Positions 1-15,779 are shown, counted from the stretch's first letter. The stretch: DNA of 64,000 nt from a virus (IMGVR_UViG_2731639221_000003:3072-67071); one strand, 5' to 3'. The notes: generated by a model from the letters alone, not told the origin. A program made the numbers and translations.

Positions 1-35
1 TTTTTACGAAAAGTCATTGGTTTTTACGAAAAGTC
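1..35. repeat. 15-bp direct repeat TTTTTACGAAAAGTC (1-15, 21-35) downstream of the integrase; possible integrase arm-type or att-associated sites
   Basis: Two exact copies separated by 5 bp, about 255 bp beyond the integrase stop. Confidence 0.6.
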
Positions 36-290
36 GTTAATAATGAAATGGCATACAATTATTTCTATGATGATTGCATGCCATATTCTAGTGATATAAT
101 TAGAAGGTTGTTAAATCAAATCTATACTATTGTTGGAACAAGGTTCAATTTGCATACGATCTTTGGAATCGACAACGATATGCAGTTTTCCGTTTTGTTC
201 GTAAATAAAATATTGCCGACATCCGATAATAATTGTTAATCGGTCGGCTTGCTCGGCATCTTTAAGATCGACTTGATAATTCATATTAAT

Positions 291-1193
291 TCAATTTTGG
301 GGTCTAGGTTTAAAAAAAGATTTATCAGACATAAACCTTGCATTATCACTCTTTTGTATTCTTATATACTTAAAAAATGATTCTTGTGTTGTATGTCCTG
401 TAAGAAGCATTATCCTATACAATGGAATATTCTCAGGTTGAGAAGCAAAATATAGGTTTGTTGCAAAAGTTCGCCTCCCAGTATGGGGAGTAATTAGTTC
501 ATACAAAGAATATACACGTTTATATAATCTTTCCCCTCTTGTTTTTTCTACTGTAATTGGCTTTGTTAAATTAGCTTTTAAACATATCCTTCGTAATGTT
601 AACCCAAATGATTGTTGTGACGGACTTTGAGGTAGCTTATATTTGTATTTTTCTAATATGTTTCTTACAACTGGATGTATTGGTATTTCAACTATATAAT
701 TTGTTTTCTGGGTTCGAACCACTATATTAGTACCTATTATATTAGGGCTTCTAAGATTGATTGTATCGCTAAAACGAAGTCCAGTATAGCACATTAAGAC
801 AAAATAGTCTCTTACGACTTCCGCTTTAGGAGATAATCTTTTCACGTCAATTATGGCTTTTATCTCTTTTTCAGAAAGAGCAATCGTCTCAGGAGCTTCC
901 CCCTTTACAATAATCGACTGGTAGCCAGAATCAATTTTAAATTCACGACTTGCTTTATTTAGTATAGTTTGAAGTATTTGAAACTTACATCTGATAGTAT
1001 TTGGACGGTATTTTTTTGGATGTTGCCTAAGAAATTCGACAAAATTCTCAGTGGTATGTTCGGTAAAATCAGAAACTTTTAGGTTTTTATTAAATTTTAT
1101 TATTAATTCCTTAGTAACTCTGAGTCTATTTTTATACCTATCGCCACGCAGAGTTGTAGCTATTAATTTATCAATAAATTCTGTTATTTTCAT
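291..1193 (-). CDS. int: Tyrosine recombinase / phage integrase (Bacteroidetes type, SAM-like plus catalytic domain)
   Basis: Catalytic motifs GLRFSD (R), RTQKT (K), HTGRR (HxxR), LTGH and YIR (Y); 300 aa. Confidence 0.92.
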   Translation of the reverse strand: MKITEFIDKLIATTLRGDRYKNRLRVTKELIIKFNKNLKVSDFTEHTTENFVEFLRQHPKKYRPNTIRCKFQILQTILNKASREFKIDSGYQSIIVKGEAPETIALSEKEIKAIIDVKRLSPKAEVVRDYFVLMCYTGLRFSDTINLRSPNIIGTNIVVRTQKTNYIVEIPIHPVVRNILEKYKYKLPQSPSQQSFGLTLRRICLKANLTKPITVEKTRGERLYKRVYSLYELITPHTGRRTFATNLYFASQPENIPLYRIMLLTGHTTQESFFKYIRIQKSDNARFMSDKSFFKPRPQN

Positions 1194-1204
1194 ATTATTT
1201 GTTT

Positions 1205-1432
1205 TTAGTTATACCGAAATGCGTTTAATTCAGATGCTTTTTTTCCGTATTTTGCTTTACAAAGGGCATCTGCATATTTTTCAGAACACCATTCACAAAA
1301 TAAATTGTTACTGTCGGCTATATAGAATCGTGTTTTTGCATTTATTCGTATTACACCATTGTAGCCTCGAATAATCTTTGTAATTATCCAATTGTCGCTA
1401 TTTATAACTGCTTTGATTGATATTTTTTTCAT
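1205..1432 (-). CDS. Hypothetical early protein (start re-assigned to MKKISIK at 1432)
   Basis: ATG at 1432 directly follows the ACCTCCGACAA motif. Confidence 0.65.
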   Translation of the reverse strand: MKKISIKAVINSDNWIITKIIRGYNGVIRINAKTRFYIADSNNLFCEWCSEKYADALCKAKYGKKASELNAFRYN

Positions 1433-1443
1433 TTGTCGGAGGT
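1433..1443 (-). promoter_or_regulatory. Start-associated motif ACCTCCGACAA
   Basis: Minus strand reads AAACCTCCGACAA-ATG. Confidence 0.8.
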
Positions 1444-1476
1444 TTAATTTGATTTTTGATTGATTTACTCGGCTGC

Positions 1477-1692
1477 TTATAATAAGATGCACCATTTACA
1501 GTTACCGTCTTTGGTTATCCATGTTTCGGTATAAGATACTTCTTTACGCCAACCGTTGAGATACCAGACGTATGATGTTTTGGCTTGAATTGCATCGGAA
1601 TCCATCATTATTATTTCATGTACTGTTATCTCTGTGTCGCCTCTTTCAGTCAAAAGGTCGGACACAATTCTTTTTGCTTCATTATCAGTCAT
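1477..1692 (-). CDS. Hypothetical early protein, 71 aa
   Basis: ORF preceded by the start-associated motif. Confidence 0.7.
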   Translation of the reverse strand: MTDNEAKRIVSDLLTERGDTEITVHEIIMMDSDAIQAKTSYVWYLNGWRKEVSYTETWITKDGNCKWCILL

Positions 1693-1704
1693 TTTGTCGG
1701 AGGT
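1693..1704 (-). promoter_or_regulatory. Start-associated motif ACCTCCGACAAA
   Basis: AAAACCTCCGACAAA-ATG. Confidence 0.8.
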
Positions 1705-1731
1705 TTTAATTAATAAATTTGGTTGAAAAAA

Positions 1732-2541
1732 TTATAATTTGTTTAATTCCTTATTTGTTGCTGTAATTACCAACAATCCTGCTTCTAACACTGAACCAGA
1801 GACATCAATAAGGCTGTTCATGCGATTTATAAATTTGTCTCCTTCGCCGTGTTGGTTTAGTGGATCACAGGTAACTAATTCGGGCATAAATATCTTTATA
1901 TCGCAGCATTTGCCGATAGCTCTTACATATTCGGTGTCGCCTCTCCTTTTGGCTACCATTTTACCGTATTGGATCGCTTCTTTCCTTTTGTCGGCAGGGA
2001 AATATGAAGTGTTCGAGATATTAGAGTTATACCAATTTTCGACAAACATCGCTGTACCACCGTGATTGTGACCTAATCCGAAGGTATTTACTACATATCG
2101 GGGTTCGCCTACTGTGGTGTAGGTGTGTTTGCCGATAATGAGGTAGTTGTTGGGCTTTTCTTGAAAGTTTCGTAACTGACATTCTTTGGTGTGTACTTCG
2201 TCGCCTTCTCGTATGATTCGGTTGCCAGTCCAATATGGGAGGTTTTCGGCTGCATTACGAACTTCCTTTATCAGTGCCTTCATAGGATTTAAACCTGATT
2301 TACCACAATTTCTTTCACTCTGCTTTATCTTTCTCCATAGTTGTCCGTTGTGGTAGAAGTAGGTTTCCCTGCAATTATACTTTTTTACTTTGAAAGCAAT
2401 TTGTACCTCACTGTATTCTAGCTTTTGGAGGTTTACAGTAATGGTTTCCTGTTCTACTTTGGTTCTTTGTAGTTTATGTTTACTACTCGGAAAGTAGGCT
2501 GTCTCGTATTTGAGATTAACTTGTATTTGAATATTTTCCAT
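1732..2541 (-). CDS. Conserved-looking mobile-element protein of unknown function (start re-assigned to MENIQ at 2541)
   Basis: Long ORF with motif TFGLGHNHGGTAMFVENWYNSNIS; start-associated motif precedes 2541. Confidence 0.75.
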   Translation of the reverse strand: MENIQIQVNLKYETAYFPSSKHKLQRTKVEQETITVNLQKLEYSEVQIAFKVKKYNCRETYFYHNGQLWRKIKQSERNCGKSGLNPMKALIKEVRNAAENLPYWTGNRIIREGDEVHTKECQLRNFQEKPNNYLIIGKHTYTTVGEPRYVVNTFGLGHNHGGTAMFVENWYNSNISNTSYFPADKRKEAIQYGKMVAKRRGDTEYVRAIGKCCDIKIFMPELVTCDPLNQHGEGDKFINRMNSLIDVSGSVLEAGLLVITATNKELNKL

Positions 2542-2553
2542 TTGGTCGGAGGT
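2542..2553 (-). promoter_or_regulatory. Start-associated motif variant ACCTCCGACCAA
   Basis: AAAACCTCCGACCAA-ATG. Confidence 0.75.
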
Positions 2554-2566
2554 TTTATGTTTCAGA

Positions 2567-3064
2567 TTAATAGTCTTGGTCGGATTCTTGCGAATGTTCA
2601 AAATAGATTTCGGGTTCGGACGTTACGTTATAGATATAGTTCCCGAATTGTACCAGTAATGCACCTTTGCCGTAAAATTGTTTTTTCATTCCTTCGGGGC
2701 TTCCCGTTGCACTGAAATTAGCAAAGGGGGATAAGTCTATATTGCTTTCCGCTAAGTGGCGTAAAGGGCGTTTTTTTGCATCCCTTGCATACGGATTGAT
2801 ATAAGATAGTTTGTCTGTTATTTGACAAAGGGTTTCAAAGTCCATAACTGATAAATCATATTGCAATCCGTTTTGGTCGATTAATAATAACTTTCCGTGC
2901 AGATAACATATTTCATCATAAATTGAAGTGTCGGATTTGATTTTCAAACATGGCTCGCTCACATATTCTGACGGTTCGCCTATCCAGTTGGTAAGTTTCT
3001 CCAGTCGGTTTTCTACTTGTTCAAATAGTTCGTTGTATCGCTCGTTGAATGTTTTTGTTTCCAT
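2567..3064 (-). CDS. Two-domain hypothetical protein; N-terminal half paralogous to 14419..14703
   Basis: Shared pattern MET...EL...SE...CLKIK...DEI...FE.LC.I.D.LS; distinct C-terminal block SATGSPEGMKKQFYGKGALLV. Confidence 0.75.
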   Translation of the reverse strand: METKTFNERYNELFEQVENRLEKLTNWIGEPSEYVSEPCLKIKSDTSIYDEICYLHGKLLLIDQNGLQYDLSVMDFETLCQITDKLSYINPYARDAKKRPLRHLAESNIDLSPFANFSATGSPEGMKKQFYGKGALLVQFGNYIYNVTSEPEIYFEHSQESDQDY

Positions 3065-3092
3065 AATTCTGGTCGGGGATTATTAAATTGTT

Positions 3093-3272
3093 TTATTTCT
3101 CGGCTTCGTTATAATAGATTGTTAAAGTCCAGCCTTTAGTAGATTCAGATTGTAGAATTTTCATAATAACACATCGTCCGTCTGTTGTATTATCAGTAAG
3201 CCATTCGTTTACACTATTTTCAAGTTTCTCTACTTCGTTGTGAGTGAATATTTTAATTTTCTGTTTATACAT
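3093..3272 (-). CDS. Small hypothetical protein, 59 aa (MYKQKIKIFTHNEVEKLENSVNEWL...), not in the ORF track
   Basis: Manually translated open frame filling the gap between co-oriented genes. Confidence 0.55.
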   Translation of the reverse strand: MYKQKIKIFTHNEVEKLENSVNEWLTDNTTDGRCVIMKILQSESTKGWTLTIYYNEAEK

Positions 3273-3275
3273 GAT

Positions 3276-4085
3276 TCATTTTTTTAGTTGATTTTTCGCT
3301 TCCCTAAATTCGTTTTTACTGTCCTCAAATTTTGCTGCTACTGCTTCACAAATGGCTTCCAGTTGTGCAGTAGTAGCTTCTTTAATCCATTCGTAATTTT
3401 GATATACAGGTGTTTGCGTGATTTCCCCGTTCTGTAAGTCAATGGCAATTGACATTATTTCTGTACCAAAATCGGCAATGATGGCTACATACTGAAAATT
3501 GAGTTCTAGTGCCAGAATATCGACTGTTACGGGTTCGAGGTCTGCACTTTCCCATGTGGTGCAAATCTGATTATCTTGAAAATTGACACGGTATAATTGT
3601 GTCATAGTTAAGTTGTAGCCATCTTTTTGGAGTTTTTCTTCTACAAAATGACGGGGATTTATTACAGTGTAACCACCTTCAAAAACGATATTATTATCTT
3701 GAACTACATATCTAGTCAGCTTTTGAAGGGTAAAACTTTGCATTGCTTTTTCGCCTCCAAAATAAAGATGTGCTGTGTCGATGGTGTCAATTGCGTTCGA
3801 TACGTCCAGTTTGTTCATGTTGCGAGTGTTCCAATAGTCGTACCCTGCCATTTTGCAAATTTCCCTGAGCTTAATTGTCTTGTAATCTGCTTGGCAAATG
3901 AAGTATTTATATGCTTCGGTTCTCAACTCTTTGTCTGACTTGCTATTCTGGTCGATTGCATCAAGTATTTGGTAACTCAATTCTTTGTATTCAACTTCAT
4001 AATCCTTACTTTGGATATAGTTGATTACTGCCTGACGGAATTTTTCGGATTCCGTCAGGTATTGTTTGTAGGTTAGATTTTTCAT
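3276..4085 (-). CDS. Hypothetical protein, 269 aa
   Basis: Long ORF in the co-oriented array. Confidence 0.7.
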   Translation of the reverse strand: MKNLTYKQYLTESEKFRQAVINYIQSKDYEVEYKELSYQILDAIDQNSKSDKELRTEAYKYFICQADYKTIKLREICKMAGYDYWNTRNMNKLDVSNAIDTIDTAHLYFGGEKAMQSFTLQKLTRYVVQDNNIVFEGGYTVINPRHFVEEKLQKDGYNLTMTQLYRVNFQDNQICTTWESADLEPVTVDILALELNFQYVAIIADFGTEIMSIAIDLQNGEITQTPVYQNYEWIKEATTAQLEAICEAVAAKFEDSKNEFREAKNQLKK

Positions 4086-4088
4086 TGT

Positions 4089-4975
4089 CTATACTGAATA
4101 ATTGGTTAATAAATCTTTTATTTTCCATTCTGCGGAGGGGTAGGCTTGCCAACATTCGTTGTTGGGCGACCATCGGAAACCGCTACTTTTGAGGGCTGTT
4201 CTCATTTTCTCGTCAGGTTTTGAGGGGAAAAACAATTTTATCCGATTTTCGGCAATGTCTTTTTCGACTGTTACCCCGTTGATGGTATAGGATTCGTTTT
4301 CTTTCCCTTCGGCATCGAGGCGTTTTTGCAGTTCGGCGATTCGGGCTTCTGTATTTTTGATTTTGGCATTGTTATTAGATAATTGCCATGTCTGAAACCC
4401 TTTTTTCTCATAAGAATATGTCGGATTGAGAAGTATATAAGCAGTTGCTTTTGAAATACCGAAGTTTGTCAATTCGTCAGAAACTTCTTCCTCTGTTAGT
4501 TTTTTGTTACGAACAACTTTGTTTATGGCTTTCATTGTCTCTTGCCATTCTTTTAGCTCGGACAATTTTTCTTCCTGTTCTTCGATCTCTGAACTAAGGG
4601 AGTAGTTTTTCTTTTTCTCCCATCGTTTTACTCTTTGGGTAATATTCTCACGCCATTCTGAAAACCTTTTATAATGATTGTCAGCCCAACGATTCAATTT
4701 TTCCATTCTTCGGACAGGGAAGTTTGATGCACCCGAAATAAACGATGAATAAATGGGTGTCTGTGAACCGAGCCATGCACGATATAGTGAAATGTATTTA
4801 GTTGTTACCCAATCATGGTATTCGGTAGGGATTTGTGACAGTAGATTTTTGACAGTAGATTTTTGAGGTCGTTCGAGTAATCGTTTATATTTCGTTCTGC
4901 GGTTGCCTCTGGGTTTGAATAAATGCCACTGCAAGCTCTTACTGCTAGGTCTTTTAAATCTCTAATTTCTTTCAT
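4089..4975 (-). pseudogene. Mobile-element protein (resembles DUF3560-type C-terminal region) frameshifted by a 14-bp tandem duplication
   Basis: ATG at 4975 follows the start motif; removing one copy of GACAGTAGATTTTT (4837-4850, 4851-4864) joins MKEIRDLK...NDL to KNLLSQIPTEYHDW...GFRWSP in frame. Confidence 0.75.
4837..4864. repeat. 14-bp perfect tandem duplication
   Basis: GACAGTAGATTTTT twice. Confidence 0.95.
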
Positions 4976-4987
4976 TTTGTCGGAGGT
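4976..4987 (-). promoter_or_regulatory. Start-associated motif ACCTCCGACAAA
   Basis: AAAAACCTCCGACAAA-ATG. Confidence 0.8.
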
Positions 4988-4997
4988 TTTTATATGA

Positions 4998-5498
4998 TTA
5001 TTTAGTAATATTTTGAAATGAAATAGTTTGATGCTTTGCCCGTAGGGAATGGATAAGCATTTCGATGTCGAAATCGGGTTTTATTTTTTCGCTATCGTTC
5101 CAGATGATTTTTTCTCCTGAATAAAAATATGTTTCTATCCATCTGCCAGAAGATATAATTTCAAATGTCATGGATGATACTCTTTGAAGTTGTTTGATTT
5201 GTTCGGAATAGTAGTGCAATAGATTTTTAACTTTTGGAAGGCTCTTTTTAGCTTTTTCAAATTCGGCAATACTTTTCCCTTCTAAGAGTGCATTATTCAA
5301 AAGAAACGTCTCTAAACAATCGAAACCGATGCTATATGTTTTATTATCCTTTTCTCCTTTTACGATTGCAATGTTTGCAAGCGGTTTGAAGCAATTTTGA
5401 CAACAATGCCCTAAACTTTCGAGTATGGGGATATAAAATTTATCCATTAATGTGTAGGTCTGTTCAAGAGACATATTACGTTCTATTATCTTTTTCAT
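4998..5498 (-). CDS. Hypothetical protein with a Cys cluster (CQNC...GFDC); start re-assigned to MKKIIER at 5498
   Basis: Start motif at 5499-5510; possible zinc-binding Cys residues. Confidence 0.7.
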   Translation of the reverse strand: MKKIIERNMSLEQTYTLMDKFYIPILESLGHCCQNCFKPLANIAIVKGEKDNKTYSIGFDCLETFLLNNALLEGKSIAEFEKAKKSLPKVKNLLHYYSEQIKQLQRVSSMTFEIISSGRWIETYFYSGEKIIWNDSEKIKPDFDIEMLIHSLRAKHQTISFQNITK

Positions 5499-5510
5499 TT
5501 TGTCGGAGGT
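5499..5510 (-). promoter_or_regulatory. Start-associated motif ACCTCCGACAAA
   Basis: ATAATACCTCCGACAAA-ATG. Confidence 0.8.
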
Positions 5511-5608
5511 ATTATATAAGAATATCCAGACGGTTGAACGGCAAGCGATCTCTACGGGTAGCAATTTTAAATCGTCCGTTTTGTCTATGATTATTCTTTC
5601 AGGTTTAA

Positions 5609-5995
5609 TTATTTGTTTTCTTTTTTCGGATAGTCGGCTAAATGTTCTCTTATTTCACTTTTAGAAATGGTTCGGATAACTAAGCCTGTTTTTCGGTGTT
5701 TGATAAGGGTTGTTTTGTACAAGTCCTCAAAATCGCCTGTATTATAACTATCGCCTGCGATTGCTTTGCATTGGTTGGATAATGGGCTTTCGGTGCTGAT
5801 TAGCAGTGTACAGTCGGGTTTGATGATATTTTCTTCCGAAAAACTTTTGTCTCTATCTTCAATAGCTATTTCTTCTTCGTTATATTCTCCGTATAATGAG
5901 CCGTCTATATATAACTGAAACTTTTTCCAAAAAGGGTTATATATTACGTCTGCTTTTATAATACCGTCTTGGGTATTGACAAATATTGCATTCAT
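5609..5995 (-). CDS. Hypothetical protein, 128 aa
   Basis: ORF in the co-oriented array. Confidence 0.65.
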   Translation of the reverse strand: MNAIFVNTQDGIIKADVIYNPFWKKFQLYIDGSLYGEYNEEEIAIEDRDKSFSEENIIKPDCTLLISTESPLSNQCKAIAGDSYNTGDFEDLYKTTLIKHRKTGLVIRTISKSEIREHLADYPKKENK

Positions 5996-6007
5996 ATTTT
6001 TTTAATT

Positions 6008-6050
6008 TATTATGTAAATAATTACAGCGAAGGTTTTTATGCTTCGCCGT
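6008..6050. other. Intergenic hairpin GCGAAG-N9-CTTCGC
   Basis: Inverted repeat at about 6027-6047 between two genes. Confidence 0.35.
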
Positions 6051-6062
6051 TCGGGTCGGGTG

Positions 6063-6374
6063 TTAATCGAAACAGGTTATTCGTTGTACGCCTCTTTCGT
6101 GGATAGGGTTGATAAATTTTATTCCTTCGTAATGGAGAAAGCCACCATCGTTCAGGATGCTTTTTAAGGCATCATAACCGCCTCTGGGGGTATAGGGTGT
6201 ATTATCGTTTTCGTAGGCTAAATATCCCTTTCCTTCGATATAAAAACAGCAACCTATAACGGATGCAGCTTGTTTGTCGGAACATTGAAATTTATAATCG
6301 TGGTCTATCTGTACTATTTCGAGTTGGTTGTTCAGTTCGATTGTTACGGAGGTACGTTCATCTGTATTTTTCAT
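6063..6374 (-). CDS. Hypothetical protein, 103 aa
   Basis: Start overlaps the upstream stop (ATGA coupling at 6371-6374). Confidence 0.7.
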   Translation of the reverse strand: MKNTDERTSVTIELNNQLEIVQIDHDYKFQCSDKQAASVIGCCFYIEGKGYLAYENDNTPYTPRGGYDALKSILNDGGFLHYEGIKFINPIHERGVQRITCFD

Positions 6375-7270
6375 GCTATTTTAATTTTCAATAGTTTATT
6401 AATAGATTCTTTATGCTTCTTTTTAGAGAATATCCACCCTTCGCCACATTTGAGGTGCTTGTTGAATTTTCCTCCCAAGTTTCCCAATTGTTCTTTGATA
6501 GGTTTGGTTTCTCCTATCAGTGCAAAGGCTTTTTCGGAATAGTCAATAATTTGTATATCCAGATTTTCGGGTATGGCTTTTTGTTCGGGTTGTTCGGTTG
6601 GCTTTTGTGGTCGTTCGGCTTTTATTCTTGCTTGTTTTTCAACAACTTTAAAAGGTTTATCCCATTTACCGATTGACATTCCATTATAGAAATTTGTATG
6701 GAAATAGTCGATTTGTGCATCACTATCATTAAAGTTGTATGTTTGGGCGAAATCGAAAGCATCTTGTAATATCTCCCTGCATAGCTCGGTCAGTCTGTCG
6801 TCTTTGCTGATATGGTAGTAATTGACATCGAAATTGAGGGTATTTTCATTGTAATATTTCTTTTGGCAATCGTCTAAATTGTCATATACAATAACGTCCT
6901 GCGGTGCTTCCAATAATGCTATATCGAGGCTGTTGTAGTCGGGTGCAGTTATTGAAAATTTATAGGTCGGATATTTTTCTTTTAAATATTCACGGACAAT
7001 TTTTGCTATGTCCTTAGTCCTTAAATTTGAATTGTAGTTGTCACCCTTCCATCCCCACGCCGTGTAAAATTCGCTACGGGTGCTTTGTGCGGTTTCGTTG
7101 GTTTTCACGCTCAATTTACTTTTCCAGATCGAGAAAAGTATATCGTATTCGTTGTTTATTTCTTGCATGGTTTCTGTTTTGCCCCCTTTGTCGGGATGGT
7201 TCGCCAGTGCAAGTTTTTTATATTGGCTTTTTAAGTCCTCTAATGAGGTTATGTTACTGAAATGTTTCAT
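6371..7270 (-). CDS. DnaJ J-domain plus LPD29-like polyvalent protein
   Basis: N-terminal LKSQYKKLALANHPDKGG (HPD motif); DIAKIVREYLKEKYPTYKFSIT resembles LPD29; extra C-terminal domain DYSEKAFALIGETKPIKEQL. Confidence 0.75.
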   Translation of the reverse strand: MKHFSNITSLEDLKSQYKKLALANHPDKGGKTETMQEINNEYDILFSIWKSKLSVKTNETAQSTRSEFYTAWGWKGDNYNSNLRTKDIAKIVREYLKEKYPTYKFSITAPDYNSLDIALLEAPQDVIVYDNLDDCQKKYYNENTLNFDVNYYHISKDDRLTELCREILQDAFDFAQTYNFNDSDAQIDYFHTNFYNGMSIGKWDKPFKVVEKQARIKAERPQKPTEQPEQKAIPENLDIQIIDYSEKAFALIGETKPIKEQLGNLGGKFNKHLKCGEGWIFSKKKHKESINKLLKIKIA

Positions 7271-7295
7271 ATCTTTGTTTTGTTAATTGATTTCT

Positions 7296-7307
7296 TTTGT
7301 CGGAGGT
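7296..7307 (-). promoter_or_regulatory. ACCTCCGACAAA motif 25 nt upstream of the J-domain gene start
   Basis: CTAACCTCCGACAAAAG. Confidence 0.7.
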
Positions 7308-7319
7308 TAGTTAATGTTT

Positions 7320-7355
7320 AGGGTGCGTGAATCTTTTGTCGGAGGTACGCACCCT
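7320..7355 (-). promoter_or_regulatory. Hairpin AGGGTGCGT/ACGCACCCT with the ACCTCCGACAAA motif in its loop
   Basis: 9-bp perfect inverted repeat (7320-7328, 7347-7355) enclosing the motif at 7335-7346. Confidence 0.7.
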
Positions 7356-7361
7356 TCTTTA

Positions 7362-7652
7362 TTAGTTGTTTATTGCTTCAAAACGAAATCTTTTCCCTTT
7401 TTTTATTACTCTGAAATTGCTTTTCGTTCCTAAGACTTGCCATTCGGTAGGGCTTATTTCTTTTAGTTCTTTTTCACTATAAAAATATTGTTCGAGACAT
7501 ATTTTTATACCGTCCAAAGTTGGAGAAGATGCGAGTAGGATTGTAACCTTTTTAGGTGGGAACAGTTTATCAAATTCGTTTTTAAATTCTTCATCTTCGT
7601 TGTAGATTCTTTCAATTTCATCTACTATCATTTTATCTATTTTGGTACTCAT
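7362..7652 (-). CDS. Hypothetical protein, 96 aa
   Basis: ORF in the array; start overlaps the upstream stop. Confidence 0.7.
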   Translation of the reverse strand: MSTKIDKMIVDEIERIYNEDEEFKNEFDKLFPPKKVTILLASSPTLDGIKICLEQYFYSEKELKEISPTEWQVLGTKSNFRVIKKGKRFRFEAINN

Positions 7653-7930
7653 TTGATTATGTTTTTAAATTGTTCATCATTGAATATATTTTCTAATTCT
7701 GCATTTATTGCAGCCTGTGAGGTTTCTTTGATTGTCGCTTTGCTTATTGGTGGTAACATGATGCAAACGGCTTTAAATACGATTTCTTCTCTTTGTGCGA
7801 CATTGTTTCGAGCGTTGCAAAATGCTACGTTTTCATTTTCAGCGTCCACTATTTCGGTTGCATTTTTCTGTACGGTCACATTGTTTGGATAATCTACCGT
7901 ATATGGAAAGGATATTTCAAATTTTTTCAT
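7649..7930 (-). CDS. Hypothetical protein, 93 aa
   Basis: Preceded by motif variant AACTCCGACAA (7931-7941). Confidence 0.7.
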   Translation of the reverse strand: MKKFEISFPYTVDYPNNVTVQKNATEIVDAENENVAFCNARNNVAQREEIVFKAVCIMLPPISKATIKETSQAAINAELENIFNDEQFKNIIK

Positions 7931-7945
7931 TTGTCGGAGTTTTTG

Positions 7946-8218
7946 TTATTTACCATCTACAATGTCACCGCAAGCAATCCAAAGAATACGCTGTATATTT
8001 TCATCATGGCTGTTTAGTTCTTTGTCGTCCCAAGCTCCATAATCATAGAGTTCGTTCTTTAGTTGTTCGGGGTCAATTTTCTTTAGTTGCCGTTTTATTT
8101 CGGGTAATTCGCTGATTCGTTTTATATCTTCGGAACAGTCGCCAGCGTGAAAACCAATTGCAGCCAGTTTTTTAGTGATATTCAGACATTCTCTGATATA
8201 GTTGAATGATACTATCAT
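7946..8218 (-). CDS. Hypothetical phage protein, 90 aa
   Basis: Conserved-looking block RQLKKIDPEQLKNELYDYGAWDDKEL...RILWIACG. Confidence 0.7.
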   Translation of the reverse strand: MIVSFNYIRECLNITKKLAAIGFHAGDCSEDIKRISELPEIKRQLKKIDPEQLKNELYDYGAWDDKELNSHDENIQRILWIACGDIVDGK

Positions 8219-8222
8219 AGTA

Positions 8223-8432
8223 TTAATATTTTTTGACTGATAAACCTTTAGGACACATAGATAATGAATAGCCGTTTTTTATTAGTTCATTTATTACGGC
8301 TGCATTACTTTCATGTATCAATATTTTATACACACTACTATAATTATCTGTTATAGGTGTATTAAAAGATACTTTTATTTGATTGTTCGTTGTAAGTATC
8401 TGAACTGCTTTGTTAAAATCTTCTGTTTTCAT
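8223..8432 (-). CDS. Hypothetical protein, 69 aa
   Basis: Preceded by ACCTCCGACA (8433-8442). Confidence 0.7.
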   Translation of the reverse strand: MKTEDFNKAVQILTTNNQIKVSFNTPITDNYSSVYKILIHESNAAVINELIKNGYSLSMCPKGLSVKKY

Positions 8433-8453
8433 TGTCGGAGGTAATAAAGTTGT

Positions 8454-9041
8454 TTAACTTGCTTTTTCGTAGATCGCTTCACCGTTGGAAAATTGAGCCG
8501 TTTTAATGAGTGCGAGTTGACAATATTCTGATAAAATTTGTTCAACTTGTTCGGTTAGTTCAGGAGTAGCAGAACGAACAAATTTTTCTATATTCTTTGA
8601 TTGTATTTTCTGCATACCCACAGGCATTTTAGAATAATAATCTAAATCCGTATAGTCGAAATGTTTTAGAAAATCTTTATAATTATCAAATGAGTAGCCG
8701 TCTATCTGTATATCTGTTATATAGTCCAGTGTTGCACCTTCATAGCGTCCATTTGATATTATTATGTGGCAGACTACATTTATAGTCACGTCTCCAAACG
8801 TTTTATTTAGTGCTAAACTATGGATATATGAGCCGCCATAATAACGGCTCATTTTATGATTTACATTATCACTATCTAAAGTGTAATAGGTTGCTTTTTC
8901 GGTCAAATTTTCAAGCTCTGTAACGATATTCTCTTTTATTTCGTCAAAATACCATGAATCAAATATTTCGCTTTCGTTGGTACTCATGCCGATAGCATAA
9001 TATTTTGTTGCTTCGTATTTACAGAAATTAGGTGCTGACAT
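8454..9041 (-). CDS. Hypothetical protein, 195 aa
   Basis: ORF beginning MSAPNF, with GRYEGATLD block. Confidence 0.7.
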   Translation of the reverse strand: MSAPNFCKYEATKYYAIGMSTNESEIFDSWYFDEIKENIVTELENLTEKATYYTLDSDNVNHKMSRYYGGSYIHSLALNKTFGDVTINVVCHIIISNGRYEGATLDYITDIQIDGYSFDNYKDFLKHFDYTDLDYYSKMPVGMQKIQSKNIEKFVRSATPELTEQVEQILSEYCQLALIKTAQFSNGEAIYEKAS

Positions 9042-9067
9042 GGCTTTATGTTTTGAATATTAGACAA

Positions 9068-9442
9068 TTAAGAAAGCTGTATTTCTTTGTTTTCGTTGAG
9101 GTCAAAAATCGAAATTTGTTCGTTTTCTATTCCGAAACTTGCGGCTTCGTCCAGATTTTGAAACACATTTACGGCATCAAAATAGAACATATCATTTGCG
9201 GAATTATACCAACCACCGATAATATTTGTGCCAACTGATAAAGCGTAATTTATGGCATTTTGTAGCCCTAATATTCCAAAGTTGTTCTGTGTTGCTTTGT
9301 AGGCTGCAACATAGCCGGATGTAATAAATTGTAAACTATTTAGATTGAAAGTAAAGCCAGAAGGGTTGTTTTTGGCTAATTGGAAAACGTTATCTGTTAA
9401 CGTTTGAAGTTGAGAAGTTTTATAGATTGCAAAATTTTTCAT
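9068..9442 (-). CDS. First gene of the early array; possible SAM-lyase-like (T3 SAMase fold) protein
   Basis: GGWYNS...FYFD...A..FG..NEQISIFDL pattern; EQISI resembles the EQxxV/I motif of phage SAM lyases. Confidence 0.4.
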   Translation of the reverse strand: MKNFAIYKTSQLQTLTDNVFQLAKNNPSGFTFNLNSLQFITSGYVAAYKATQNNFGILGLQNAINYALSVGTNIIGGWYNSANDMFYFDAVNVFQNLDEAASFGIENEQISIFDLNENKEIQLS

Positions 9443-9453
9443 AAATTTGCCCC

Positions 9454-9548
9454 GATTACGGCGGGGACTTTTGTTTTCCCGTAATTGAAAGTTTATACTT
9501 TCGATAGGGTTGTGAGGTCGCCAAACTTTAGCAACCCTATCTTTTTTT
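9454..9548. promoter_or_regulatory. Three consecutive hairpins in the early-operon leader; the outer one is also a plus-strand terminator-like structure
   Basis: GATAGGGTTG/CAACCCTATC (9503-9541) followed by T7; GAAAGT/ACTTTC; ATTACGG/CCGTAAT. Confidence 0.55.
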
Positions 9549-10291
9549 AGTTAGAATTAGCTCCCTAGTGTTAACCCAATAACAAAAGGGATGCAAGCAT
9601 TTTAAAAGTCGTTTTGTCGCTATTTTAGTAGTTCGGTTGTTCATTCAACAAACCAGAACAAACAGGCTTACACAAGTGAGTTTTAGTGCTGCATATTGTT
9701 TTTTATAAATATTTGTGTTAGGTGCGTGTTTTGTTTTTCATCGGAATGGATTGCAACCCATATAACACGCTTACCGCTTGCGATGCGTCCGATTATTCTA
9801 ATATTTTGGCTACTATTCAGGTCGATTCTCCCTTTCGCCAGACCCCCTTAGAATGGGTGTCTAATTTCAATACGTCAAAGAACACTAACCGACATAGGGA
9901 TAATCGGCTCAATCCGATTTTCTCTGTTCATTTGCCTCTTTTCTCGGTAAACAGATAAAGCCGAGATACTAGATAATAAGAGATATATTGTAATTCATTT
10001 AACGAGCTTGGCAAGTGGCTCAACTTGGCAGATTTTTAAACGTTATATGTATCTGCAAAACGGACTTTTTTTTATTGAATTATCGCTATAACTCCCTTAT
10101 TATTACAGTAGTAAAGATACAAAATAGGTTTTAAACTACCAACAAATTTGATGGAAAAATGTAACAATTGTTGCATTTTTAACAATATGCAATAGTCAGG
10201 CTTAACTTAAAAATATACAGGCATATAAGAGAATGCAAATACCCCTATTATAGAGACATTAATACTATTTGCAAGCCCCTAAATAAATGAT

Positions 10292-10362
10292 TATATTTGT
10301 TTATAACTTAAAGAGGCATAAAGCCCTGAACATTGCTATAAGGCAGCGTTTAGGGCTATTTG
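10292..10362 (+). promoter_or_regulatory. TATATTTG -7 box, AGAGGCA and AGCCC/GGGCT hairpin (late-leader element 1)
   Basis: TATATTTG 10292-10299, AGAGGCA 10312-10318, stem AGCCCTGAAC/GTTTAGGGCT. Confidence 0.75.
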
Positions 10363-10380
10363 CGTTAATACCTTAATACA

Positions 10381-10947
10381 ATGAAATACAAGATACCTAA
10401 GACCGCACAGGAGCGACAAAACGAAATTGAGAAACTTTCTAATTTAGAGCGTTTTTGTTTAGACGCTTATATTGTAAGTAAGTTCCCAGCTTCCCAAAAG
10501 GTTGTTATTGCTTACGAGCAGAGCAGACCGAGAGAAGCACAAGCCAACCGCCAAAGTGTCTATACACAAGCTAGGAATTGGATTAATACGGACAAATGCA
10601 AATACTATATAGAGGATAGGAAAAAAGAACTATTTGCAACCGATCAGCACAGATACAGTACTACCCAAAACGAAGGGAACGAAACAGAAGCGGACACGGA
10701 AAACAACCCCACAGAATCAAACCGCACGAAGGGGGAAACAATTTCAGAATTAAATAAACTTGCAGACAACACAAATGATGTAAAATTGAAGGCTGAAATA
10801 TTGCTAAAGATTAGCGATCTGGAGGGGTGGAAGAAGGAGAAGGAACAGACGGACGATAATACAATACGCTATTATTTACCGCTTAGATGTAACGTTTGCT
10901 CACTATATAAGGCAGCAAAGGAGCAGAAGGCAAAACAGCAAACATAA
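10381..10947 (+). CDS. Probable terminase small subunit
   Basis: TerS-like helical N-terminus (AY..SR...A..W...YIEDR), acidic linker, C-terminal YYLPLRCNVC; preceded by a late-leader element. Confidence 0.5.
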   Translation: MKYKIPKTAQERQNEIEKLSNLERFCLDAYIVSKFPASQKVVIAYEQSRPREAQANRQSVYTQARNWINTDKCKYYIEDRKKELFATDQHRYSTTQNEGNETEADTENNPTESNRTKGETISELNKLADNTNDVKLKAEILLKISDLEGWKKEKEQTDDNTIRYYLPLRCNVCSLYKAAKEQKAKQQT

Positions 10948-11412
10948 CTAATTGACACAGTGGTTAAGTATGCTTATACATATAAGCGAACCCAACGAAA
11001 GAGCCTAAAGGACAGGGAGCAGACCAACCCGAAGCGAGCAAAAAGGGTACACCCCACCCCCTAGAAAAATGAGCAGAAAACCCAATTCATTGCAGATAAA
11101 TTTTTTGGGTATTTTTTTGGTAGTATTGGGGGGGATTTTTACCTGTTTGTTTTTTGTGATCGGAGTGTTAAAAACATAGATAAATTATGATAGTGCGGAT
11201 AGTCAATAAAATAACGATAATTGTGATTTCGGTTGTTTACATCGCTTCATTACTTGTTTTATGGTTATCCGAGCGAATCTATTGAAATATTCTCTTTATA
11301 AGATATATATAGTATGAAGTATTAATTTGTTGATATACAGAAATGTAATCAATTATAATATGCACGAATCGAGCATATATTGTCTACAAAACGTGCATAC
11401 AATTATTAGGGT

Positions 11413-11883
11413 ATGAGTATTAGAGAGTTTAATGAGGATAACCCATTTATTGAGAAGCTACAAGACATAAAGACTGGAACTAGGACTGCTATTTGTTCCA
11501 GAGGGAATATTGTTTCGATGGTGGACGATGATACTGGAGAGGTAAAAGGTCGGGGCTTTAATGCGGTAATCAGAGAGAAGCAATACGATTCGGAACGATT
11601 TGTAAAGATGTATGCGGCAGGACGAAAGGTATTGCCTAATTTAAGTGTAGCGGCAACCCGAATACTCTGGTATATAGTAGACCACATGGGATATGATGAT
11701 ATGATAACGCTAAATATCACTAAGATAAAAAAGGAAACAGGCTACAAAAGTAATGCTGCTATTTATAGGGCTATTTCGGAACTAAAGAATCATTGCGTCT
11801 TAGCTAATGCGTACCAAAATGGAATATATTATATCAATCCTGCCATGTTTTATCGTGGTAATAGGTTGAAACTTCTAATCTAG
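11413..11883 (+). CDS. RepL-like winged-helix replication/maintenance protein
   Basis: FVKMY...ATRILWYI...IYRAISEL...YYINPAMFYRGNR matches RepL-type wHTH proteins. Confidence 0.65.
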   Translation: MSIREFNEDNPFIEKLQDIKTGTRTAICSRGNIVSMVDDDTGEVKGRGFNAVIREKQYDSERFVKMYAAGRKVLPNLSVAATRILWYIVDHMGYDDMITLNITKIKKETGYKSNAAIYRAISELKNHCVLANAYQNGIYYINPAMFYRGNRLKLLI

Positions 11884-12034
11884 TTTTGATAAATAATTTA
11901 TTTACTGGACAATGAATTATTTAACATATTTGTAGTAGTTTTGTCGAATGTGATGTTTGTGTATTTATAATGTTGTAACCCAATATTATATAATACAGGT
12001 TGATAGTTGTTACCATTGAATTAAAAATAATATT

Positions 12035-12889
12035 ATGAAAATTAGACTAAGTAAAGATTTTAAGGTTGAATTAAGTACATTAGTTCGATTTGAATGGAGA
12101 AAATACTATCCTGTATTAATAATACACGAAAGATTCGAGAAGATTATAAAATACACTATTTGGGCAATAATTATTATTACAATTCTAAGTTCATTATTAG
12201 TATTTCAGAATTGTATTTGTAGTTTAATTTTAGCTATAACATTATTTTTATTGCAAAAGTTATTTGAGAAAACAATATTTGAATATACAACTGTTGTTTT
12301 TGCCCCACTTCCTGACTTTGCAATTGATAATACGCAGTGGCTTACTAATGCTTTTCTAATACCAACTAATGAGGATGACACTTATGACAAATCACTTCCC
12401 GCAACGTTCTCTATTTGCTTCCGAGACGAAAATTACGCAAAAAAAGTATTTGAATTATTTAAACAATGGAATTATGAAGAAGATAATGATACTGAAAATA
12501 ATATTATAATATCTTTCGTAGTAGAGCCTAATGAAAAGTATTCAACATATATATATCAAAACCCTAGAAGAAAAAATCCTGATAAATATTTTGAAAAAGT
12601 AAAAGAAAAAAACAAATTGGAGAAATATGGAAAGCAACAACAAAGATTCTTAGTAGGGTTTATTTTAGGTAAGAAATTAGATTTTAAAAATGGGATGCTT
12701 ATAAAATTGTTTCTTGATTTTCAAGAGCAAAATAAACTATTCAATTTTATGCCTTCTACGGAAATTACAGTAGATGGAAAAAAAGGAGTGAAATTTTTAA
12801 ATACCTCAACAATAAACAAATATGGCTTTGAACTAAAAAAGAGAAACGAATTAACAAAAAAAGATTTTGAATATCATTATCCAATATAA
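12035..12889 (+). CDS. Low-GC membrane protein (moron) with two N-terminal TM helices
   Basis: Hydrophobic segments TIWAIIIITILSSLLVF and ICSLILAITLFLL; very AT-rich. Confidence 0.7.
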   Translation: MKIRLSKDFKVELSTLVRFEWRKYYPVLIIHERFEKIIKYTIWAIIIITILSSLLVFQNCICSLILAITLFLLQKLFEKTIFEYTTVVFAPLPDFAIDNTQWLTNAFLIPTNEDDTYDKSLPATFSICFRDENYAKKVFELFKQWNYEEDNDTENNIIISFVVEPNEKYSTYIYQNPRRKNPDKYFEKVKEKNKLEKYGKQQQRFLVGFILGKKLDFKNGMLIKLFLDFQEQNKLFNFMPSTEITVDGKKGVKFLNTSTINKYGFELKKRNELTKKDFEYHYPI

Positions 12890-13050
12890 ATAAAACAAGG
12901 GGAACATTTCTGTTCCCCTCTGGCACAACATCATAGTTGATTACGGATGCCTATGAATGTTGCCCTGTTGAAAGGTACTGATTAATCAGTGCCTTTTTGT
13001 CGTCTCACGACGATAATTGAGTAATCAATTTTGTTCTCAGGTTAGCGAGA
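12890..13050. ncRNA. Candidate small structured RNA or convergent terminator cluster (five hairpins)
   Basis: Stems at 12898-12919, 12922-12963, 12971-12996, 13000-13013 and 13016-13029; TACATTTG -7-like box on the minus strand at 13063-13056. Confidence 0.35.
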
Positions 13051-13120
13051 TATTACAAATGTATTGTCCTTTACCTTATTTTTCTAATTTAGCAAGAGAG
13101 AGTTTTCGTAATTCCGAAAA

Positions 13121-13369
13121 CTATTGAAAACTCTGTATTAATCGGGTCTTGGTATCAAATACTTTACCTTCCGGCAACCAAAAGCAATCTTCTAAAGTCG
13201 GGTTCTCTTTTTGTAAGCACCAATCTTTGACAAAGCAATAGATTGTATTCTGCGTTTTATTGATTGATTGTGTTCTTACTCCGGCTACTTCCCGTTGTAC
13301 GATATTTCCTGTTTTGGCATTAAGTACCCAGACTTTATCGCCTTCTGCGAATTGTGTTTCGAGTGTCAT
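13121..13369 (-). CDS. Hypothetical protein, 82 aa (SH3/KOW-like pattern)
   Basis: FAEGDKVWVL...WLPEGKVFDTK pattern typical of small phage proteins. Confidence 0.65.
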   Translation of the reverse strand: MTLETQFAEGDKVWVLNAKTGNIVQREVAGVRTQSINKTQNTIYCFVKDWCLQKENPTLEDCFWLPEGKVFDTKTRLIQSFQ

Positions 13370-13378
13370 GTGTCGTAA

Positions 13379-13774
13379 TTAATTATTGGATTGGTATTTT
13401 TCTTTTTCTTCCATGATAATGGCTTGGTCTGCTTCTTCCGATATTGACTTTTGAGCTTGCATTATTCGGTCAACAGATGATTTGTAAGCCTGAATGATTT
13501 CTTCGATAAATATAGAATCGGGAACACCATTGCATACTGCATAATAAGCCGCAAATTCCAAGTGTAGGATGTTTTGACCTTCTTCTGTTTTAATCTCATT
13601 GGAAATCCAGATAAATAACGGATTATCTTCACGAAAGCTAATACTCCAATTGCCATTTACTGTTGTAATCTTAACAGACCGTAGTTTTTGTCCCTTCTCA
13701 AATTTGATAATAAAGTTGCCGATTTGCGTTGATTTATCATTCTTACTTTTAAAGTTGTTTGGTTTGTTACTCAT
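13379..13774 (-). CDS. Hypothetical protein, 131 aa
   Basis: Clean ORF co-oriented with 13121..13369. Confidence 0.65.
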   Translation of the reverse strand: MSNKPNNFKSKNDKSTQIGNFIIKFEKGQKLRSVKITTVNGNWSISFREDNPLFIWISNEIKTEEGQNILHLEFAAYYAVCNGVPDSIFIEEIIQAYKSSVDRIMQAQKSISEEADQAIIMEEKEKYQSNN

Positions 13775-13873
13775 AGTGTAATTTTACTTAGTAATGTTAT
13801 ATAATTCGTCAATTCAAATGCTTGGTTACTATATAAATGTAATAAAAAAAAGGCAGTTATCCAAATTTGGATA

Positions 13874-14416
13874 TTGACAGAAAAACAGCTATATTTATAT
13901 AGACTTAACACAAACTATACGTTGAAAATACGAGCCGCTTTTGATGTCGGCAAGGATGGGGCTTTTGTGGTTTTTCGGGATGAAAAGCCAATAGAGAAAA
14001 CCGTGATGCCGACAGTTGGGAATCAGATAGATTTGACCCTAATACGTGATATACTCAGGAAATACGATTGCGAAAACATTCATGTAGTCATTGAAGATGT
14101 ACATGCGATTTTCGGTGCGGCGGCGAAATCGACTTTTAACTTCGGCTGGTCGCTGGGAATACTGGAGGGAATGCTTGCGGGGATGGGAATACCTTACACA
14201 AAAGTAGCCCCGAAGGTATGGCAGAAAGAAATGTGGCAAGGGGTTTCGCCTGTTTATAAATCGGGTAAGGCGATAGATACTAAGGCTACTTCTTTGATAG
14301 CGGCAAAAAGATTATTCCCGAACGAGGATTTAAGAAAATCAGGAAGGGCAACATTACCGCATGACGGGATTGTTGATGCTTTGTTGATGGCTGAGTATTG
14401 TCGGAGAAAGTTTTGA
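13874..14416 (+). CDS. RuvC-like Holliday junction resolvase (phage type); true start may be TTG at 13922
   Basis: AFDVGKDG (catalytic D), VIEDV (E), FNFG, P..WQK, DALLMAEY (D). Confidence 0.85.
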   Translation: MTEKQLYLYRLNTNYTLKIRAAFDVGKDGAFVVFRDEKPIEKTVMPTVGNQIDLTLIRDILRKYDCENIHVVIEDVHAIFGAAAKSTFNFGWSLGILEGMLAGMGIPYTKVAPKVWQKEMWQGVSPVYKSGKAIDTKATSLIAAKRLFPNEDLRKSGRATLPHDGIVDALLMAEYCRRKF

Positions 14417-14418
14417 GA

Positions 14419-14703
14419 TCATAGCTTACTAAGGTCATCTGATATTCGGCACAAATCTTCAAATTCGATAAAAGATAAAGAACATTGTGCATCCTGATTT
14501 ACTAAAATAAGGTTGTCATTTTTCTTTACTAATACTATTTCGTCAAATTTAGGATATATATTTTTTATCTTTAAACAATTTTCGTCACAAAACTCAGATT
14601 TTACACCTCTTTCCCGAATCAACTTCCGCAAACATTCTACAACATTTATATAAAGTTCAGCATTAGTGTCAGTAAACGAGTTATAATTACAATCAGTTTC
14701 CAT
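14419..14703 (-). CDS. Hypothetical protein paralogous to the N-terminus of 2567..3064
   Basis: Visual alignment of CLKIK, DEI and FEDLCRISDDLS. Confidence 0.7.
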   Translation of the reverse strand: METDCNYNSFTDTNAELYINVVECLRKLIRERGVKSEFCDENCLKIKNIYPKFDEIVLVKKNDNLILVNQDAQCSLSFIEFEDLCRISDDLSKL

Positions 14704-14760
14704 TTTTAATATTTTAATTTACTGCGAAGATAATGGAAATCATTTAATACTTGCAATTTC

Positions 14761-15270: not shown

Positions 15271-15335
15271 AATATTATATTTAAAATTTTCTGTAAACTT
15301 ACGCAATAGCGTATGAAAAAACAATAGTAAATATG

Positions 15336-15770: not shown

Positions 15771-15779
15771 ATCGGTATT

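Follow-up and report, generated by a model that had tools for sequence, protein, structure and literature searches.

The 64-kb window analysed here (64,000 nucleotides of the viral sequence IMGVR_UViG_2731639221_000003, corresponding to C4:120963-184962 of a 5.12-Mb genome, 36.7% GC) holds a siphovirus-like prophage, whose recognisable genes are listed in Table 1. Next to its integrase gene, int, lies an operon of 17 small genes, mostly ORFans, in which a short motif, ACCTCCGACAA, recurs on the coding (minus) strand at start codons. This motif, and what might read it, is the subject of the present analysis. Two operon products carry domains, DnaJ+LPD29 (gene 6371-7270) and DUF8359 (gene 1732-2541), and no others were found in the operon. 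Since Dysgonomonas sp. 25 carries the nearest relative that comes from a named genome, again a prophage, the host is probably Dysgonomonas or a near relative; the 3' end of its 16S rRNA reads ...GGAACACCUCCUUUCU.

A search of the window found exact copies of the motif at 1433, 1694, 4977, 5500, 7297, 7336 and 8432. With at most one mismatch there are 11 matches, all on the minus strand, against 0.72 expected, and none of 100 shuffles reached this number. One-mismatch copies lie at 2543 (ACCTCCGACCA) and 7931 (AACTCCGACAA), and two more, at 15733 and 53946, fall inside open reading frames (ORFs) and are not start-associated. For seven copies (five of them exact, the other two one-mismatch copies) the end lies -1 to +1 nucleotides (nt) from the ATG of a real ORF. 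An earlier note on this DNA had listed the copies with coordinates that are correct to within 1 nt; it had seen seven of them end 0-1 nt before an ATG, which agrees with our count, and the weak variant that it placed near 3070 is the CCCCGACCAGA of Table 1. The motif precedes nearly all cistrons of the operon that have an intergenic spacer of their own (15-44 nt before the motif-bearing genes, 110 nt in one case), the exceptions being the first two genes, gene 5609-5995 and int, and the motif-less genes inside the operon mostly overlap or abut the gene before them.

Across the 5.12-Mb genome the exact motif occurs nine times, seven of them within this 7-kb stretch, and neither of the two copies outside the prophage stands at a gene start on the motif strand. 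A genome-wide scan with the start pattern CTCCGAC[AC]A(0-4)N(0-3)ATG gave seven cases that open an ORF of 56-269 amino acids (aa), all in this operon, and nine elsewhere, eight of which open ORFs of at most 42 aa while the ninth lies in a 485-aa open frame; the scan returned no recognisable host gene start carrying the motif. What stands of the dedicated regulon of early, anti-host genes put forward in the earlier note is a phage-internal set of genes marked at their starts. That the operon is early is a reasonable inference from its position, by analogy with the pL arm of lambda, and an anti-host role of its genes is suggested by position only.

Table 1. Features of the window, with the motif copies and their complementarity to the predicted small RNA (sRNA); seed 1 and seed 2 are the complements of the motif in its two hairpins.
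Feature	Position	Strand	Remarks
Tyrosine integrase (int)	291-1193	-	
Integrase-proximal operon, putative regulon	1205..9442	-	3' end adjoins int
Operon gene 1 (124-aa product)	9068-9442	-	without motif
Operon gene 2 (~195-aa product)	8454-9041	-	without motif
Motif ACCTCCGACAA	8432..8442	-	shares its last A with the ATG of ORF 8223-8432 (69 aa); 12-nt perfect complement to predicted sRNA seed 2
Motif AACTCCGACAA	7931..7941	-	abuts ATG of ORF 7649-7930 (93 aa); 10-nt complement
Motif copy	5500..5510	-	1 nt from ATG (5498) of ORF 4998-5498 (166 aa); 14-nt complement TACCTCCGACAAAA to seed 2
Motif copy	4977..4987	-	1 nt from ATG (4975) of gene 4089-4975; 14-nt complement
Weak variant CCCCGACCAGA	3068..3078	-	GAC to ATG (3064) 7 nt, ORF 2567-3064; variant kept in L039 and L283
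Motif variant ACCTCCGACCA (the L283 allele)	2543..2553	-	1 nt from ATG (2541) of DUF8359 gene 1732-2541; 10-nt complement
Motif copy	1694..1704	-	1 nt from ATG of ORF 1477-1692 (71 aa); 14-nt complement
Motif copy	1433..1443	-	abuts ATG of ORF 1205-1432 (75 aa); 13-nt complement
Predicted promoter -7 box TATCTTTG	7270..7277	+	perfect TAnnTTTG; overlaps DnaJ/LPD29 ATG on opposite strand
Predicted sRNA hairpin 1, apical loop UUUGUC, seed 1 CUUUUGUCGGAGGU (7294-7307)	7282..7315	+	complement of leader copy 7297-7307
Predicted sRNA hairpin 2 (GGGUGCGU/ACGCACCC), seed 2 CUUUUGUCGGAGGU in loop (7333-7346)	7320..7355	+	complement of copy 7336-7346
U-rich tail UCUUUAUUAGU	7356..7366	+	predicted terminator tail
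SPP1-type portal	16598-18139		
Large terminase	19038-20636		
Major capsid protein	22552-23712		
Tape measure protein	26985-32171		

Relatives were collected through proteins, namely homologues of the DUF8359 protein and of the conserved 124-aa product of the first operon gene; the motif itself was left out of the collection in order to avoid circularity. Nine contigs present a common architecture, with a divergent control region, the 124-aa gene, the ~195-aa gene, variable small genes and then the integrase, and eight of the nine carry a start-adjacent motif of the same family in phage-specific alleles. The allele of the window, ACCTCCGACAA, is also that of L039 and L041, whereas L283 has ACCTCCGACCA, L285 has A(A)CTCCGACAA together with one CCTCTGAC, L042 and L051 (the contig of Dysgonomonas sp. 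25) have (A)CCCGACCAA, L286 has CCCGACCAA and CCCCGACTAA, and L306 has ATCCGACCAA and ACCCGACTAA. The invariant part is CCGAC-[A/C/T]-AA, and the distance from GAC to ATG ranges over 1-7 nt across the motif copies, a loose spacing like that of Shine-Dalgarno (SD) sequences. The start-codon-associated motif is therefore real and conserved, and so is its spacing to the ATG, the lack of which in relatives would, according to the earlier note, have spoken against its proposal.

The same note had drawn attention to the resemblance of the motif to the anti-SD core, and the string ACCUCC does match the end of the host 16S rRNA, but its importance does not hold up among the relatives. The anti-SD string CCUCC is absent from L042, L051, L286 and L306, and most L285 copies have only CUCC (ACUCC); as the alleles differ there, the core CCTCC is not the conserved part of the motif. 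The 124-aa protein of the window is 56% identical to its homologue in Dysgonomonas sp. 25 (L051), so that the hosts of these two prophages are probably close. Further out, two distant DUF8359 contexts that use SD sequences (L047 and L048) have a strong repetitive SD before each small gene, which underlines that the motif occupies the 'SD position', and another DUF8359 context more distant than the nine contigs (L046) showed no motif within the recovered part. Nearly all small genes of L047 at 8278-11733 carry one identical extended SD block, AAAGGAGATATGAAC-ATG, the counterpart, in an SD-using phage, of a repeated start-associated sequence.

In the ninth contig (L288) the operon is truncated, with a hairpin remnant and another start context, CTGAACA-ATG, and without the CCGAC motif. 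This is a second recurring start context, seen in L288 and L286, and no complementary hairpin copy was found for it. Another contig encoding a homologue of the 124-aa protein, L052 (IMGVR_UViG_3300011989_000009), belongs to a different phage of 92 kb; at 9900-18100 at least seven of its genes are preceded, at about 20 nt, by a recurring AACCGAGTCGCAAGACTCAT-AAAATT, a hairpin with a GNRA loop. No relatives emerged from a megablast of window positions 1-9600 against phage records, which gave no match, or from scans of viral contigs that used the DUF8359 protein or the 195-aa protein as single queries. Two sets of candidates were set aside: the L047 proteins as homologues of the 124-aa and 195-aa proteins, at an unconvincing 27-28% identity, and genomes enriched for the motif 11-mer (401 genomes of the order, background about two per genome), which proved unrelated, G156 owing its copies to a contig-end repeat, G264 to a 21-bp tandem array and the rest being scattered.

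Two exact copies in the window do not adjoin a start codon. The copy at 7336 (minus strand) forms the loop of a hairpin, GGGTGCGT[ACCTCCGACAAAAGATTC]ACGCACCC, and the copy at 7297, hereafter the leader copy, lies 39 nt past it; the DnaJ/LPD29 gene begins with its ATG at 7270, 26 nt beyond the leader copy and 30 nt beyond its CCGAC core. All eight motif-bearing relatives have the hairpin-loop copy and seven also have the leader copy, which L283 lacks; in every relative these copies carry the allele of their own phage. This holds also for phages with more than one allele. In L285 the loop, CCTCTGAC, equals the target at 13920 and the leader, ACTCCGACAA, equals about five targets; the non-start copies of L286, CCCGACCAA and CCCCGACTAA, are both found at gene starts as well; and in L306 ATCCGACCAA equals the target at 3065 and ACCCGACTAA the one at 4765. 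At least six alleles are each common to the non-start (seed) copies and the start copies within one phage.

The locus of the two non-start copies is conserved beyond the motif. In the window and L041, whose flanking genes here are unrelated, it stands out as a 96-nt island of 92% identity. The loop motif is retained throughout while the stem of its hairpin (hairpin 2 in Table 1) changes: a UA pair is replaced by CG, a compensatory change, in L042, L051 and L286, the stem is GGTGTGC/GCACACC in L306, and it is wholly different in L283 (GTGGGCTT/AAGCCCAC). The leader copy and the -7 box beside it are kept in L042 and L051 even though no gene starts there (L042 has a 21-codon ORF and L051 has ATA), which indicates that the leader copy is not conserved as a start-associated site.

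Among the mechanisms suggested in the earlier note, an antisense RNA containing GUCGGAGGU gains support in silico, because a -7 box, two strand-specific hairpins and a U-rich tail are predicted on the plus strand opposite the two non-start copies (Table 1). The box conforms to TAnnTTTG, the -7 consensus of the Bacteroidetes sigma-ABfr (PMC7366714). It is kept as TATCTTTG or TAACTTTG in all seven relatives with a leader copy, including L051, where there is no sense ATG, and varies at just one of its two free 'n' positions. Hairpin 1 starts about 5 nt downstream of the box. Both hairpins hold CUUUUGUCGGAGGU, the exact complement of the motif, and display UUUGUC or UUGUCG in apical loops whose predicted unpaired probability is high.

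The predicted fold is specific to the plus strand. The RNAalifold consensus comprises two hairpins there (-20.8 kcal/mol) and hairpin 2 only on the sense strand (-12.8 kcal/mol), and single-sequence fold energies are -25 to -31 kcal/mol (z -4.2 to -5.9) on the plus strand versus -13 to -17 on the sense strand. The consensus structure pairs 93.5% of cells, as compared with 34-49% when the partners are slid, and its covariation score exceeds that of all 500 shuffles (seven sequences). Hairpin 1 includes 25 G-U cells, which are C-A mismatches on the sense strand, so its helix is possible on the plus strand only. According to our own reading of the sequences, the tail past hairpin 2 is T-rich (6-8 of 10 positions) in plus orientation in all relatives with the hairpin, and in sense orientation only in L042, L051, L286 and L306.

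Perfect complements between seeds and targets span 10-14 nt and end at or beside the A of the ATG, three of them being the 14-mer AACCUCCGACAAAA; in each phage, 4-8 translation initiation regions (TIRs) match the predicted sRNA of that phage by a perfect complement of 9 nt or more. Targets were ranked by the length of the exact complement instead of by RNAduplex, because the RNAduplex ranking of all TIRs of the window was noisy and gave its best score to one unrelated late gene. Rfam returned no match in window positions 1-12000 at E up to 1. A covariance model of the element (R1), run on 150 related genomes, scored its own locus at 114.7 bits and otherwise only matches of 30-37 bits, which consist of a generic TTTTCATATCTTTG box and two hairpins with no anti-motif. 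Some of these genomes share an element of their own: L292, L294, L298, L302 and L303 (in G446, G440, G414, G429 and G459, five genomes of one family and three genera) are mutually similar two-hairpin elements after a TTTTCATATCTTTG box (TTTTCATATATTTG in L303), and may represent an unrelated conserved sRNA family. A scan of metagenome and viral contigs with the hairpin pattern gave 230 matches, which were discarded as chance, mostly in GC-rich DNA, except for L202, where the 171-nt context of the match is identical to L051.

The motif, its position and conservation, the matched phage-specific alleles at targets and seeds, and a strand-specific covarying fold are shown by the sequences. We propose, with a confidence that goes about halfway, that the motif is the target box of a predicted ~80-nt antisense sRNA, which would base-pair with the early cistrons from -13 to +1 and so block their initiation. 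A plus-strand transcript would start near 7282 from the -7 box at 7270-7277, fold into the two hairpins and end at the U-rich tail at about 7363. Its loop-displayed seeds would pair with ACCUCCGACAAA(A), at about -13 to +1, of seven independently initiated minus-strand cistrons. Bacteroidia ribosomes use an unstructured A-rich upstream region and not SD pairing (PMC7366714; PMC7797042, PMC9976891). Because this region is needed, a loop-initiated duplex that covers it upstream of the ATG should block initiation by the SD-independent ribosome, as for the sRNA GibS. Translationally coupled downstream genes would follow the repression, which may belong to lysogeny or to a late shut-off, and the first two genes and int would be exempt. 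Where the sRNA is encoded, it would also be complementary to the operon mRNA over its whole length. Plus-strand transcription, pairing and repression are all three inferred in this model.

Several points weigh against an antisense sRNA. Seed-target complementarity is automatic, since the sRNA locus is two more motif copies read backwards, and a protein that binds the motif on the sense RNA, also in the hairpin loop, would agree with these data too. TAnnTTTG is not rare on the T-rich plus strand, where it occurs 10 times in 8.3 kb (about once per 850 nt), roughly as composition predicts; the box of the sRNA counts only through its conserved placement. Covariation counts overstate independence because the relatives form few clades, with an effective sequence number of 1.84. 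The assignment of the promoter is less clean in L283 and L306, whose nearest -7 box (TATATTTG) is some 60 nt more distant on the upstream side and separated from the locus by a copy of the leader hairpin of operon gene 1. Most of each seed is in stems, which would have to open. Finally, the terminator features are mixed: a GC-rich stem and a T-rich tail are present in all relatives, but the loop is 16-18 nt long, the tail of the window has no run of four or more U, and a simple scan called only a partial hairpin at 7341-7357.

The alternative that best survives is the protein just mentioned. The motif would then be a single-stranded RNA site for a phage or host RNA-binding protein at early initiation regions, like the sites of T4 RegA or CsrA, and the loop copy with its neighbour would be a high-affinity site, a decoy or a termination control. 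All copies are indeed on the coding strand with an SD-like flexible spacing, one is displayed in the loop of a conserved covarying hairpin, and concerted alleles in each phage are expected if a phage protein co-evolves with its sites. A factor binding the loop could also modulate termination in the four relatives that have a sense-strand T-run after the hairpin. We nevertheless regard such a protein as unlikely. Scans of the 17 operon proteins and of three plus-strand neighbours (10381-12889) found no RNA-binding domain, and the only proteins found to be common to all the phages, the first two operon products, are also encoded by the motif-less L288, the 124-aa family being moreover very broad (1540 matches). 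A protein would leave unexplained hairpin 1 with its plus-only G-U pairs, the conserved -7 box and the consistently T-rich tail on the plus strand.

It is less probable still that the motif acts at the DNA level, as a homology or boundary element for the exchange of ORFan cassettes, like the PeSL elements of T4-like phages, or as the site of a DNA-binding protein, ATG adjacency then just marking the borders of cassettes. In comparisons of the window with L283, L039, L041 and L285, homology blocks end many times within about 20 nt of motif copies, the cassette 1454-1717 between two motifs is found at another position in L285, the homologues of 3276-4085 and 4089-4975 are swapped in L042 and L051, each with a motif, and concerted alleles within a phage could arise by conversion. 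However, mosaic junctions lie at gene borders in most phages anyway, and the ends of homology blocks at motifs may well be a side effect of the repeats, by analogy with PeSLs (PMC2839356). An element of 11-14 nt is short for homologous exchange, and this one is asymmetric rather than palindromic; the tight distance to the ATG, a loop copy kept in L283 despite a replaced stem, and a fold restricted to one strand would all go unexplained. Nor are the start-adjacent copies promoters, since no TAnnTTTG was found on the sense strand between 1200 and 9500.

Least of all do we credit a cis signal read by the host ribosome, whether a mimic of the 16S tail that competes for the bS21/bS18/bS6 pocket, as suggested in the earlier note, or an unstructured C/A-rich enhancer: the SD position and SD-like spacing, the identity of ACCUCC with the host anti-SD core, the established sequestration of the anti-SD in Bacteroidia (PMC7797042, PMC9976891) and the strong repeated SD of L047 and L048 at the same position make the idea of an anti-SD mimic attractive, but it is unsupported and is corrected here, given that CCUCC is lost or reduced in several alleles, including that of L051 with its probably close host, that concerted allele switching is unexpected with a conserved ribosome, that complementarity between motif and 16S rRNA does not exceed that of shuffles (best duplex -13.5 kcal/mol; 21% of shuffles as good), that no recognisable host gene start has the motif, and that the two non-start copies are left without explanation.

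Several other features of the operon are worth recording. The motif-bearing gene 4089-4975 is frameshifted by a perfect 14-bp tandem duplication (AAAATCTACTGTCA twice) at 4836-4863 (minus strand); removal of one AAAATCTACTGTCA copy restores an open frame of 290 aa with 93% identity to the intact 292-aa homologue of L283, so that the gene is either broken in the window prophage or affected by an assembly error. The order of the two homologous genes at 3276-4975 is inverted in L042 (5857-7571) and L051 (11906-13626). Each member of this swapped pair (the homologues of 3276-4085 and 4089-4975) has its own motif in L042 and L051, whereas the second gene of the window pair lacks a motif and is translationally coupled.

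The first operon gene has a conserved hairpin in its 5' untranslated region, CCCCGCCGTAATCGGGG (9442-9466), 6 nt from the ATG, with compensatory changes in relatives, and its ATG overlaps a plus-strand TAnnTTTG box, TAAATTTG (9442-9449). In L283 and L306 a second, complete copy of this leader module precedes the LPD29 gene. Some 80 nt before the first operon ATG, at 9503-9541 (minus strand), a 10-bp inverted repeat (GATAGGGTTG...CAACCCTATC) surrounds a near-consensus -7 box, AAAGTTTG (9522-9529). This stretch, also found in L283, is a candidate promoter/operator of the operon. Immediately past the stop of gene 6063-6374, at 6025-6061 (minus strand), a variant motif, ACCCGACC (6054-6061), is followed by a hairpin, GGCGAAGC-ATAAAAAC-CTTCGCTG, whose 3' arm and tail (ccttcgccgtaattatttac) recur in L039, L041, L285 and L286 and may constitute an internal terminator.

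If the antisense sRNA exists, it may have a further role. The sRNA and the start boxes could amount to a sequence-addressable immunity, in which the sRNA of a resident prophage would shut down translation initiation of early accessory genes (probably anti-defence genes) in any incoming phage with the same allele; this would drive the rapid diversification of alleles among close relatives (ACAA, ACCA, ACTCC, CCCGACC, CCCCGACT, ATCCGACC). We consider this doubtful. The matched alleles resemble the c4 immunity of phages P1 and P7, and a role in phage-phage specificity is speculative, drawn from that analogy. Were the immunity reading true, start motifs of the Cluster K type could be understood as sRNA target boxes, and the system would be a multi-target analogue of P1/P7 heteroimmunity in a host without SD. 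The antisense sRNA would, to our knowledge, be the first phage-encoded trans-acting sRNA regulon described in Bacteroidales, and would show that the translation of an ORFan early block can be switched in a non-SD host; Bacteroidales genetics could then draw on the matched natural alleles as orthogonal translational switches.

Neither such a motif nor such an sRNA was found described for Bacteroidales phages in the literature searches. The phenomenon is the Bacteroidales counterpart of the start-associated sequences (SAS) of Cluster K mycobacteriophages, whose mechanism is open, their authors having left undecided whether an RNA or a protein reads them (PMC3203893). As with SAS, many non-structural genes from different families have a short asymmetric motif, in one orientation, a few nt before their start codon, which is mostly ATG, and the motif is nearly absent from the host genome. 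In contrast, SAS (GGGATAGGAGCCC) includes AGGAG, the SD core, and is thereby able to pair with the 16S tail, whereas the motif described here has the same sense as the anti-SD and was found to have no complementary site in the 16S rRNA; the 17-bp inverted repeat of the extended element (ESAS), found at about half of SAS sites, was not seen in the spacers of the operon. Phage start-associated motifs have been known since 2011 without a mechanism, and a candidate trans-acting partner is visible here in the sequence itself.

The PeSL elements of T4-like phages (PMC2839356, PMC4122927) are likewise repeated elements in a hyperplastic ORFan region of small non-essential genes, with mosaic junctions that coincide with the repeats. 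PeSLs are longer units of promoter and terminator, however, and the start-adjacent copies of the motif have neither a promoter box nor a stem-loop. Closer to the proposed mechanism is GibS of Bacteroides thetaiotaomicron, which has a TAnnTTTG -7 promoter, pairs with TIRs and represses (PMC7366714). The predicted sRNA resembles it in a TAnnTTTG at the right distance, in an AT-rich sequence and in a predicted extended seed pairing with TIRs, and may, as GibS does, end in a 3' terminator hairpin. GibS differs in being chromosomal and intergenic, with a single-stranded 5' seed and metabolic targets; the RNA predicted here is borne by a prophage, antisense to its own operon and equipped with duplicated seeds displayed in loops, and the two have no homology.

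The nearest parallel in mechanism is the c4 RNA of P1 and P7, to which the CI RNA of P4 is related. Short exposed sequences of c4 match more than one site, c4 is cut from a same-strand transcript upstream of its targets, with two target sites, and the P1 and P7 versions carry changes that are matched between the RNA and its targets (heteroimmunity). In the immI operon, according to PMC8198154, which cites Citron and Schuster (1990), c4 is a small structured antisense RNA complementary to a ribosome-binding region and is needed for full repression of ant. Like c4, the RNA predicted in silico here is small and structured, with exposed sequences complementary to several sites of an operon mRNA; its target sites overlap the translation initiation region, and related phages show matched changes in RNA and targets. 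Unlike c4, with which it has no sequence similarity, it is predicted on the opposite strand, with a host-type promoter of its own and a stable two-hairpin fold and U-tail there, and it would act in cis on its own locus as well as in trans on about seven near-identical start boxes. The mechanism would be a c4-like phage antisense control that differs in its opposite strand, in its many near-identical start-codon targets and in an SD-less Bacteroidales host.

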